IMG/VR virus record: IMGVR_UViG_3300044723_007644
Location: 1-29,818 of that record
DNA length: 29,818 nucleotides
Reading direction: 5' to 3' (one strand)
Source: a virus
Taxonomy: Duplodnaviria > Caudoviricetes
The stretch's first letter is position 1. Every line of letters begins with the position of its first letter. The notes below the pieces were generated by a model that made no database searches, was not told where the DNA came from, and was given only the letters and a program-made list of their open reading frames with translations. Both the position numbers and the translations under genes were made by a program. Of the stretch, positions 18,359 through 28,998 are shown piece after piece.

Positions 18359-19789
18359 ATGCCAAGAGCAAAAAAGACTGCTACTAAAACACAAAAAAAA
18401 GTAGTAGCAAAAAAAGAGATTGTTAAAGATACATCTCAAGAGCTAGATTTAAAAAAGTTAAAAGCGGCACTTAAAAGAGAATTAAAAAAGGAGTTGCAAG
18501 GCCAAATAGATGAAAGTTTCCTGATGTGGGGAGCCGAATCAGAAGAGCCTGAACAAGCAGATGCATTTGTAGATATGGATTTGTTAAGAGCTGAAATATC
18601 AGCAGAGTTTAAAAAAGAGTTTGATAAAAAACTTGCTAAGATAAAAAGTATTAGTGCAGGAGAAACACAGGCTTTAAATTTATCTAATAATCTTGTTGAC
18701 ATAGAACAATCACAAGATGGTATAAGTGTAAAGACAGCAGGACAAGACGACATTGTTCTTACTGCAACAAAGAATGGTGCATTGGCTTTTGGAAACAAAG
18801 CACCAAGAGTATCAGGATTTGGTACAGCACATTTTAGGATGAAAGGTGCAGGTAAATCACCAATACCCTCAAATGGCCCTGGAAGCACAAGAGGGGTAAT
18901 TGTTGAAGGAGATGGTGATGACGATAAGACGTTTAGTTTTAGAGCTTTAAGTACTGGAAATAGACAAGGTTTTAATGTAGGTAGTACAGGTAAAGTAATG
19001 TTAGGTATAAGTGAAGACATTACCAATAGTTTATTTACTGCTTACAACAATGATAATGATGTAGATGGATTTAATGTTGTTTCTGCAAGTAAGTATTTTA
19101 CAGGAAATATGCTTAAATTACAAAATGCATCAGATATAAGAGACACATATAACTTTATAGATGCTAAAACTAATGCTTTTGAAGATAATCCTTTTAGTGT
19201 ATTTAGAGTTAATGGTTTAGGTGAAACATATACACATAAAGGGTTTTTTACTAATAGTACAGGATATGCAGAAGCATTTGAATGGGCAGACGGTAATAGA
19301 AACAATGAGGATCGCAATGGCTTAACAGTTGCAGTTAATGAGCAAGGAAAACTTATTGATGCAGGAGATGACAACGAAACCATAATAGGAGTAGTTGTAG
19401 AAAGTGCGGCAGTTGTTGGTAATGCAGGATGGAATATTTGGCAAAATTATGATAATTTTGAAGAAACCAAATACAAGAAATATAAAGTTGTAGAATGGAA
19501 AGATGACGCAGGTGTACTACATAGTAATTATTTAAGTTCATTAAGCCAAAACTTTGCACTTCCAGAAGATGCAATTATATATGAGACAGAATACGACGGT
19601 TCATCACTGACCCGTCCTGTACTAAAAGGAAACTTTGATGCAGGCAAGGAGTATGAGCCCAGATTAAAAAGAGGGTGGACACTGGTGGTATTAAAAGGTA
19701 CAGTGGCTATGTTTAAAGGACAAAATGTAAACAAGTCCTGGATTAAAATTAGAGATTTAAATGACGAATTAGAACAGCGAATTTTGTGA
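18359..19789 (+). CDS. Structural protein with C-terminal peptidase G2 (IMC autoproteolytic)-like domain
   Basis: GYAEAFEWADGNRNNEDRNG...IIGVV...AVVGNA...FDAGKEYEPR...WTLVVLKG pattern; basic, coiled-coil N-terminus. Confidence 0.7.
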   Translation: MPRAKKTATKTQKKVVAKKEIVKDTSQELDLKKLKAALKRELKKELQGQIDESFLMWGAESEEPEQADAFVDMDLLRAEISAEFKKEFDKKLAKIKSISAGETQALNLSNNLVDIEQSQDGISVKTAGQDDIVLTATKNGALAFGNKAPRVSGFGTAHFRMKGAGKSPIPSNGPGSTRGVIVEGDGDDDKTFSFRALSTGNRQGFNVGSTGKVMLGISEDITNSLFTAYNNDNDVDGFNVVSASKYFTGNMLKLQNASDIRDTYNFIDAKTNAFEDNPFSVFRVNGLGETYTHKGFFTNSTGYAEAFEWADGNRNNEDRNGLTVAVNEQGKLIDAGDDNETIIGVVVESAAVVGNAGWNIWQNYDNFEETKYKKYKVVEWKDDAGVLHSNYLSSLSQNFALPEDAIIYETEYDGSSLTRPVLKGNFDAGKEYEPRLKRGWTLVVLKGTVAMFKGQNVNKSWIKIRDLNDELEQRIL

Positions 19790-27431: not shown

Positions 27432-27460
27432 TTGACAAGCAGTACTCTTTCTGCTATAAT
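27432..27460 (+). promoter_or_regulatory. Consensus sigma70 promoter
   Basis: TTGACA-17 nt-TATAAT, perfect match; ATG 8 nt downstream. Confidence 0.85.
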
Positions 27461-27955: not shown

Positions 27956-27963
27956 GATAAATA
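27956..27963 (+). promoter_or_regulatory. Late-promoter-like motif GATAAATA
   Basis: Exact motif upstream of a hairpin leader and AAGGAG RBS of 28017. Confidence 0.6.
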
Positions 27964-28016
27964 TATTATGTTATAATAACAGATGGTTTTATAACATTCT
28001 TATATAAGGAGAAAAT

Positions 28017-28352
28017 ATGAATAAATTGAAAAATATATTTTTTGGTGTATTCTTTGTGATGTTCGCTCAAGGTTGTGCCACAGTTGGTACAGTAATTGAC
28101 GGCGGAAAACAACTTGCTACAGATACAATTGATACTGTAACCGGTACTGCTAGTTCAGTAGTTGGTTCAGTTGCAAATGATGTTGGTAGCATTGTGCAAA
28201 CTGGTGCAGAAGTAGGTGTTGGATTAGTCCAAACTGCGGCTGACACAGGTGCTGGATTAGTGAAAGTTGTTGCTGACGAAGTAAACGACCAAACTGATGC
28301 TTTACAAGAAGGCGAAGCAAAAGAAGAAACTAAAGAAGAGCCAAAAAAGTAA
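28017..28352 (+). CDS. Lipoprotein with 11-residue amphipathic repeats
   Basis: MNKLK + hydrophobic + FAQGC lipobox; strong AAGGAG RBS; ends CCA AAA AAG TAA. Confidence 0.8.
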   Translation: MNKLKNIFFGVFFVMFAQGCATVGTVIDGGKQLATDTIDTVTGTASSVVGSVANDVGSIVQTGAEVGVGLVQTAADTGAGLVKVVADEVNDQTDALQEGEAKEETKEEPKK

Positions 28353-28528
28353 CACGCTCATTCTTTAAACCCTTTAAGTTTTTAACTAAGAACGAAAAGG
28401 CTAAAGTCTTACCCTCAATAGAGGATGAGCAGGTTTCAGATGAGGAGATCCAAGAGTTTATTAAACAGGTAAAATTGTATCAAAAACTAATGGAGTACTG
28501 CTCTAAGAATCCTAAAGAGTGTGAATAA
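28343..28528 (+). other. Candidate -1 frameshift site A_AAA_AAG and 59-codon extension frame
   Basis: Heptamer 28343-28349 just before the stop; -1 frame reads VTRSFFKPF...YCSKNPKECE* to 28528 and fills the gap. Confidence 0.65.
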
Positions 28529-28530
28529 TT

Positions 28531-28998
28531 ATGAGAACGGCAATAGCAGGCATGTTATTGCTGTTTTCTTCTAGTCTATTTGCTTTAGACCTCACTTATA
28601 ATCCCCCACTAGATCCTTATTACTGCGATAATAATCCTGAAATTTGTAAAAGTTTTGAATCCAATGACGTTCCAAAGTTTAATATAACTCCACGAGCTAC
28701 CAATGGACAATGGTTAGCATTTTGGACATTTCAGTTATTAGATGTTTACTCAACATCAAAAGCATTAAAGTATGATTGTGTAAAAGAAGTAAATCCACTT
28801 TTTACAGAAAATCCTAGTGATGCTAGATTAGTACTTACGAAAACACTTTTACTTGTACCTGGATTAGTTTACAATGATTATTGGAAAGAAGTCACACCCC
28901 ACGAACTTGATGATTCTAATATGGTGTACTCAGTAGTTGTTGCGAATAACTTTAGATTACTAAACAAAGCCAAGCAGGAATGCAATAAAATACGATAA
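28531..28998 (+). CDS. Exported/membrane protein, unknown function
   Basis: Signal peptide (LFA/L), YYCDNNPEIC, LDVYST..AL...KEVNPLF. Confidence 0.7.
   Translation: MRTAIAGMLLLFSSSLFALDLTYNPPLDPYYCDNNPEICKSFESNDVPKFNITPRATNGQWLAFWTFQLLDVYSTSKALKYDCVKEVNPLFTENPSDARLVLTKTLLLVPGLVYNDYWKEVTPHELDDSNMVYSVVVANNFRLLNKAKQECNKIR

Follow-up and report, generated by a model that had tools for sequence, protein, structure and literature searches.

The lipoprotein gene near the 3' end of this viral record, a gene of uncultured marine giant phages, raises a question of translation: do all ribosomes terminate at its TAA codon, or does a share of them slip back one base just before it and continue through a further 59 codons? 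The window analyzed is the entire record, positions 1 to 29,818 (29,818 nucleotides; IMG/VR record IMGVR_UViG_3300044723_007644), which has a completeness of about 9%. It carries T4-type portal and major head genes, the head protein sharing 68.7% identity with its counterpart in jumbo phages PA5oct and MIJ3, and the sequencing runs containing most of the window are estuary metagenomes. Upstream of the lipoprotein gene lie csgF, csgG, a curlin-like gene, a FecR gene and a second curlin-like ORF (labelled by eye); a 155-aa ORF and then a CHASE2 gene follow downstream. This cluster corresponds to the viral curli/T8SS module that PMC7029224 and PMC9599517 report from pelagiphages, made up of CsgF, CsgG, curlin, FecR and adenylate cyclase; the main texts of both papers do not contain the words ‘frameshift’ or ‘lipoprotein’.

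The 0-frame product is a predicted lipoprotein of 111 aa (28017..28352, + strand) with a Shine-Dalgarno-like TAAGGAG at 28005..28011 (+ strand). Its ORF ends CCA AAA AAG TAA, with the A6 run at 28343-28348 and the G at 28349, and the last two sense codons carry the slippery heptamer A_AAA_AAG (28343..28349, + strand); the 0-frame stop falls within a 6-nt spacer (28350..28355, + strand), as delimited by pairing probabilities in homologs. The original prediction read the -1 frame at this junction accurately: there is a stop near 28331 (at 28331-28333), the frame is then open over 28334-28528, it offers no start codon until near its end (only TTG 28475 and ATG 28490), and from 28349 it encodes the 59 residues quoted (28349..28528, + strand; hereafter the tail), ending 2 nt before the next ATG at 28531. 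The CxxxPxxC motif of the tail is also echoed, as claimed, in the next protein (155 aa, 28531..28998, + strand; DUF5658-like, below the cut-off). Among the 46 in-frame X_XXY_YYZ heptamers in the 25 plus-strand genes of the window, only A_AAA_AAG at 28343-28349 falls on a last codon, and its -1 opening of 59 codons compares with ≤35 codons at the other 45. The last-codon heptamer and long -1 frame are more than chance would provide.

Elsewhere in the window, the gene at 18359-19789 has three in-frame A_AAA_AAG heptamers in its lysine-rich start, each with a -1 stop within 7 codons; these are probably incidental. A second likely -1 site is located on the minus strand (780-532) at the end of ORF 1604-753. 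The heptamers A_AAU_UUU and U_UUU_UUC overlap at the end of this 283-aa gene; its -1 frame is open for 77-78 codons, has no early start and reaches the next gene, and the 283-aa gene adjoins a tape-measure-like gene, as G/GT-type chaperones do.

A frame broken at a homopolymer run could reflect an assembly error, with A7 and a single 170-aa ORF as the true sequence. Public contigs, however, keep the A6 run: two from RNA runs of different studies, X7 (28289-28439) and X23 (28263-28468), match the window without gaps across it, and no indel at 28343-28349 appears among the rows listed for 8 of 24 runs, which are contigs rather than raw reads and cannot show strand, level or rare variants. Contigs from DNA runs also span the A run, with <31 letters on one side. 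The identical break recurs in dozens of independent assemblies with different heptamers, and neither the 106 family proteins from databases nor a weak search of longer proteins yielded a full-length in-frame fusion. Neither of two outcomes that the original prediction had named as refuting it, an A7 run or homologs always fused in frame, was realised, and an assembly error is next to impossible. Two apparent in-frame fusions, each a single and possibly chimeric record, were rejected: in P0046 the tail is fused to an unrelated protein, and P0059 has the end of the tail attached to the first 57 aa.

Conservation of the heptamer and of the -1 frame in homologs had been proposed as a check, and both are conserved. 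In the first two scans, 30/30 loci (14 distinct tails) share the heptamer, the stop, three free bases and the stem arm described below. Wider scans took in the best 80 of 205 and the best 80 of 159 lipoprotein relatives, 45 tail loci and pattern matches; 294 lipoprotein matches were obtained, 293 of which passed the filters and gave 99 distinct junctions, the window included. The tail is present in 86 of these 99, and a slippery site was found in 86/86 tailed and 0/13 tail-less junctions. The sites are A_AAA_AAG (74), G_GGA_AAG (5), G_GAA_AAG (1) and AA_AAG_AAG (6), so that 79 of the 80 -1 junctions have A_AAA_AAG or G_GGA_AAG; A_AAA_AAG occupies the last two codons in 53 cases and sits one codon earlier in 21. 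The association also holds for the 82 loci found with the lipoprotein alone (69/69 tailed, 0/13 tail-less), a search that cannot have favoured the site. AAG is otherwise rare in these genes (67 of 465 other Lys codons). Since the junctions are related, as are the 539 sequence pairs used below for dN/dS, such counts overstate the number of independent events. A lipoprotein tree of 63 rows and few columns accounts for the tail-less state with only 2 changes and forces at least 3 for G_GGA_AAG; L326 (site and tail) and its sister row L329 (decayed site, no tail) group at 99/93.

Tailed genes are located beside curli/CHASE2 genes in 47 of 65 loci of ≥2.5 kb, compared to 0/13 for tail-less genes, while others follow a head gene or lie near replication genes. 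Unlike the pelagiphage module, then, the tailed homologs occur outside the curli cluster too, indicating that the cassette travels with the lipoprotein and not with the cluster. L326/L327 and L329/L145 are sister genes that both follow the major head gene; site and tail are kept in the first pair, whereas in the second the site has decayed, the tail is missing and a terminator-like hairpin is present. The tail-less homologs L127, L137, L124 and L120 belong to other phage types, and some lie near ORFs that look by eye like holins or endolysins, a lead for an envelope or lysis role. Among 50,697 records of cultured phages there was no match to the lipoprotein of the window or to the distant lipoprotein of L139. 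GTDB genomes, searched with query patterns that fit only close relatives, gave one locus, L394, a phage-like piece that runs into an apparently unrelated frame on a MAG contig labelled Ilumatobacteraceae; the contig is probably chimeric or misbinned and was rejected as a host assignment.

The tail is a coding sequence under purifying selection. For 539 related pairs the dN/dS of the whole tail is 0.28 and that of its 3' portion, beyond the stem, is 0.09; other frames of the region give 0.91-2.46 with many stops. CxxxPxxC is present in 85/86 tails, the exception being cut by the end of its locus. Tails of 31-74 aa occur across the homologs. In the window the tail consists of a charged linker, an amphipathic helix and a CxxxPxxC cap; AlphaFold2 places the helix at residues 31-53, with block pLDDT values of 92-94 over residues 31-59, and the hydrophobic period of the helix peaks at 3.4. 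Invariant synonymous sites show that the 5' half is also constrained at the RNA level, which would suit a non-coding element (a terminator, processing or stability signal) with the open -1 frame as its by-product. Such an element is extremely unlikely, as the 3' half outside the stem combines the dN/dS of 0.09 with free synonymous change, no terminator-like site was found on the + strand, and Rfam gave no credible match.

A coding tail could also be a small gene of its own, whose translation begins at a late or non-standard codon or relies on reinitiation once ribosomes have terminated at the lipoprotein stop. TTG 28475 and ATG 28490 exist, GAGG motifs in the tail resemble ribosome-binding sites, and a start occurs within 8 codons after the junction in 10/80 -1 junctions, leaving 70/80 without one. 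At or before the junction there is no start codon in any of the 80, and the frame is open there for only 2-19 codons. The tail's frame is moreover open and in phase from the heptamer onward through whole-codon indels, and a separate gene would need neither a slippery site in 86/86 junctions nor a fixed spacer; we regard it as very unlikely. Nor does the tail require the next gene, an idea that was dropped: the tail is kept where no homolog of its neighbour was detected, and the CxxxPxxC echo therefore does not tie the two together. In 20/86 junctions the next gene starts at a GTG overlapping the tail's stop, and 16 further junctions have that GTG with <100 codons in the available sequence. In L006, L022 and L024 an inverted repeat, TTCCTCTG...CAGAGGAA, lies just 3' of the tail's stop, in the start of the next gene, and it persists even where that gene looks broken.

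Downstream of the spacer we predict an RNA structure that the earlier sequence-only note had missed. The predicted 3' stimulator (28356..28430, + strand, 75 nt, three-way-junction-like) starts at the seventh base after the heptamer (fold z -2.45); its closing helix pairs 28356-28366 with 28420-28430 and encloses two hairpins, one variable (about 28370-28400) and one small. At the 74 A_AAA_AAG junctions, nucleotide 6 after the heptamer has a mean 5'-arm pairing probability of 0.15 and nucleotide 7 one of 0.74; in the 5 G_GGA_AAG junctions the same step is from 0.40 to 0.98, while the tail-less junctions are flat. The mean z against shuffles is -2.82, with 52/74 below -2 (tail-less, -1.14 and 3/13), and the first predicted helix follows after 6 nt in 40/74 and after 6-7 nt in 45/74. 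These predictions place the structure within the 5-9 nt at which 3' stimulators mostly lie (PMC5009743).

In 46/46 close junctions the closing helix has canonical pairs at positions 1-10, and it closes 37 of 40 distinct elements, with lengths of 57-90 nt that are all multiples of 3. The sequence of the enclosed hairpin varies freely, and it folds better than its own shuffles in 40/40. Among the 46 junctions few lineages show two-sided changes, which fall at pairs 8, 10 and 11, and covariation was nil on a 22-sequence alignment (6+4-pair structure), making true two-sided covariation in the stem thin. Distant relatives have unrelated hairpins at equal spacing, and the L347-L381 group has no clean helix at nucleotide 7. 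CCTC (28413-28416) and GAGG (28442-28445) are both present in 43/44 elements, can form 4-7 bp at fixed distances and keep their sequence even as the residue encoded there changes between P, S, A and T; from this invariance we hypothesize, and only hypothesize, a pseudoknot (28413..28445, + strand) as an alternative to the small hairpin. An upstream Shine-Dalgarno stimulator is not conserved, with 19/86 reaching 4 kcal with the anti-SD octamer.

The spacing of this structure also bears on slippage by RNA polymerase, which could add an A to some mRNAs and so encode the long form in frame. Most homologs do have A6-A7 runs. Runs as short as these, however, rarely cause RNA polymerase slippage, the G_GGA_AAG homologs have only A3, the structure is conserved at a spacing suited to ribosomes, and no extra A was seen in the RNA-run contigs, which drop rare variants. 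Slippage during transcription is thus highly unlikely.

Taken together, the junction appears to have the testable features of a bacterial-type programmed -1 site, and its anatomy fits established frameshift work, from which we infer products of 111 aa and 170 aa. Programmed -1 frameshifting at the end of the lipoprotein gene is very probably the correct reading, and the two isoforms (111 and ~170 aa) originally proposed gain support from the conservation of site, -1 frame and tail in homologs. In dnaX, -1 shifting on A_AAA_AAG reaches about 80%, once the two Lys codons have been read and because tRNA-Lys pairs better with AAA (PMC6787027), and in E. coli G_GGA_AAG is likewise a highly shift-prone heptamer (PMC5009743); these are observations on dnaX and E. 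coli. By analogy with known systems, two tRNA-Lys would slip in tandem after reading both Lys codons, driven by the gain from AAG to AAA and by the encounter of the ribosome with the stem. A share of ribosomes would slip back one base at the heptamer, aided by the spacer and the branched RNA structure, and produce the 170-aa form with its extra helix and cysteine-capped tail; those that do not slip would terminate immediately at the spacer's TAA, giving the 111-aa form.

The mechanism is classical (dnaX, IS911, lambda G/GT), and its use in a phage lipoprotein would be the unusual part. E. coli dnaX (tau/gamma) shares A_AAA_AAG, two tRNA-Lys and a 3' stem-loop (PMC6787027), but there the shift shortens the product, whereas here it would lengthen it, and dnaX uses an upstream SD-like stimulator of the kind that is not conserved at the lipoprotein site. 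OrfA/OrfAB of IS911 and the IS3 family likewise consist of a short 0-frame product and a -1 fusion, and the slippery site of IS911 is A_AAA_AAG. Its stimulator is a three-way junction (PMC5009743), resembling the fold predicted here; the IS product is, however, a transposase and not a lipoprotein, a sequence relation between the two is not expected, and distant relatives of the lipoprotein use plain hairpins. Lambda G/GT is a cytoplasmic chaperone, in contrast to a predicted lipoprotein with a signal peptide, and the gene studied here lies not between tail tube and tape-measure genes but among curli-cluster and CHASE2 neighbours; the strong 3' structure suggests a ratio higher than the 30:1 of lambda. 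A tail assembly chaperone was rejected on the basis of the signal peptide and lipobox, the non-tail neighbours and the absence of a PHROG match.

In phages T7, T3, Lactobacillus A2 and Listeria phages, frameshifting gives some of the chains an additional C-terminal domain (PMC5009743), as is predicted here; those capsid and tail-tube products are virion shell proteins, often with Ig-like additions, in contrast to a helical tail of 31-74 aa on an envelope lipoprotein. The original prediction considered recoding in a non-tail phage envelope gene unusual. As far as the lipoprotein is concerned this stands, with no paper on a frameshifted phage lipoprotein returned by full-text searches of a collection with few subscription papers. 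The ‘non-tail’ part does not stand, because frameshifting also occurs in capsid genes, namely those of T7, T3, A2 and Listeria phages (PMC5009743).

What the two forms do has to be judged from the protein. It has a signal peptide, a lipobox with Cys20, a 77-aa amphipathic core with an 11-residue period and a charged end with KK. The lipobox Cys is invariant after a hydrophobic stretch in both alignments, with AQGC, LPSC, ATSC and other variants across the 86 junctions, a pattern that predicts a bacterial lipoprotein with a type II signal peptide. In 78 distinct homologs the mature core shows a sharp 3.67-residue hydrophobic period, and its length is only ever 66 or 77 aa, that is, six or seven 11-mers. 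Pfam and PHROG gave no convincing family for the lipoprotein, and with Rfam and the ESM Atlas included no named family was found for lipoprotein, tail or RNA; the best named ESM Atlas cluster, DUF6726 at 0.86, is a lead only. The AlphaFold2 model of the lipoprotein is of low confidence (pLDDT 43), and with the fold unreliable the inference of function rests on the sequence pattern.

Late expression is suggested by TAAATA, which precedes 73/73 tailed and 3/13 tail-less homologs (those with enough flank) and which we take, like ATAAATA, to be the T4-type late promoter motif. In the window ATAAATA lies at 27957..27963 (+ strand), one of 11 sites of this type on the + strand that are mostly immediately 5' of genes. 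A perfect sigma-70 consensus (12/12) lies at 27432-27460, before two small membrane-protein ORFs 5' of the lipoprotein gene, which may accordingly have both an early and a late promoter.

We tentatively propose, at somewhat less than even confidence, that both forms are lipid-anchored late proteins of the host's outer membrane, that the helix and disulfide-capped end of the long form act as a docking or oligomerising tag, and that frameshifting sets the tagged share. The 11-residue-period helices of both forms would lie on the membrane or bundle, and the frameshift would set the number of tagged chains, as in lambda G/GT for the T domain. The tail is charged and has no membrane helix, and the 14 mapped tailed loci are not beside lysis genes, features that bear on a spanin, which would be expected in a lysis cassette with a paired inner-membrane subunit or a C-terminal membrane helix. 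Exclusion, lysis and curli export are all candidate roles for the lipoprotein.

Six distinct junctions (L092, L096, L097, L112, L242, L310) have AA_AAG_AAG in place of the usual heptamer. Their stem begins one base earlier, giving a 5-nt spacer in 5/6 by the folding rule, and the tail is intact in the +1/-2 frame in 6/6, while the -1 frame stops after 6 codons. A search with a pattern covering the four combinations of site and spacer gave at least 24 homologs among 120 metagenome matches listed; among the matches listed, 19 combine A_AAA_AAG with the long spacer and 5 combine AA_AAG_AAG with the short one, with no mixed case. In IMG/VR, 4/4 homologous AA_AAG_AAG matches have the short spacer (a fifth match was unrelated), and a loose pattern search returned mostly chance matches (9 homologs of 120) and no new type. 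On the cassette tree the six group with L234 (96/88), which carries the -1 version of nearly the same cassette, nearly identical to that of L242, and the AA_AAG_AAG type thus probably has one origin. It needs 4 changes on the lipoprotein tree, where it is scattered, versus 2 on the cassette tree, where it is clustered; the 5' part of the lipoprotein gene and the cassette therefore seem to recombine near the junction.

A -2 shift is known in phage Mu (PMC5009743), and on U6A it works best at spacers 1-2 nt shorter than those for -1 (PMC3458567). The six-junction lineage shares the shorter spacer with the U6A tests but differs in motif, and its cassette occurs naturally in both a -1 and a candidate -2 version. 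The tail of these six could instead be translated from an internal +1-frame ATG, reached by a +1 shift or no longer made at all, the -1 product being just 6 codons longer. A_AAG_AAG gives 44% -1 shifting in dnaX (PMC6787027), -2 re-pairing on AA_AAG_AAG requires a second-position G-U mismatch, and 5/6 junctions have an upstream start in the tail's frame. Such starts are, however, the background of that frame (62/80 in the -1 controls), vary in position and are missing in L112; the tail is intact in all six; each of the two heptamer types has its own spacer length in every one of the matches listed; and L234 is nearly the cassette of L242 in -1 form. We consider these other origins of the tail a serious competitor, though somewhat short of an even chance, and lean slightly towards a natural switch from -1 to -2 in this lineage as the candidate explanation. 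With the same slight preference, we picture a widespread family of marine phage lipoproteins with a swappable cassette that gives two envelope isoforms, one lineage having moved from -1 to -2 by one codon change and one deleted spacer base and making up to three products.

The family provides a natural mutational series, with three heptamers, two positions, many unrelated stimulators and one spacer. The matched pair L234 (-1) and L242 (candidate -2) makes the spacer-tension model directly testable on bacterial ribosomes, and the switch, if true, would be nature's own proof that the length of the spacer determines how far they slip. Gene callers miss the long form, as seen in the 106 database family proteins. 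Frameshifting of this gene would carry phage recoding beyond tail and capsid genes, into a lipoprotein of the host envelope, and would add a two-form component to the unexplained phage curli region.
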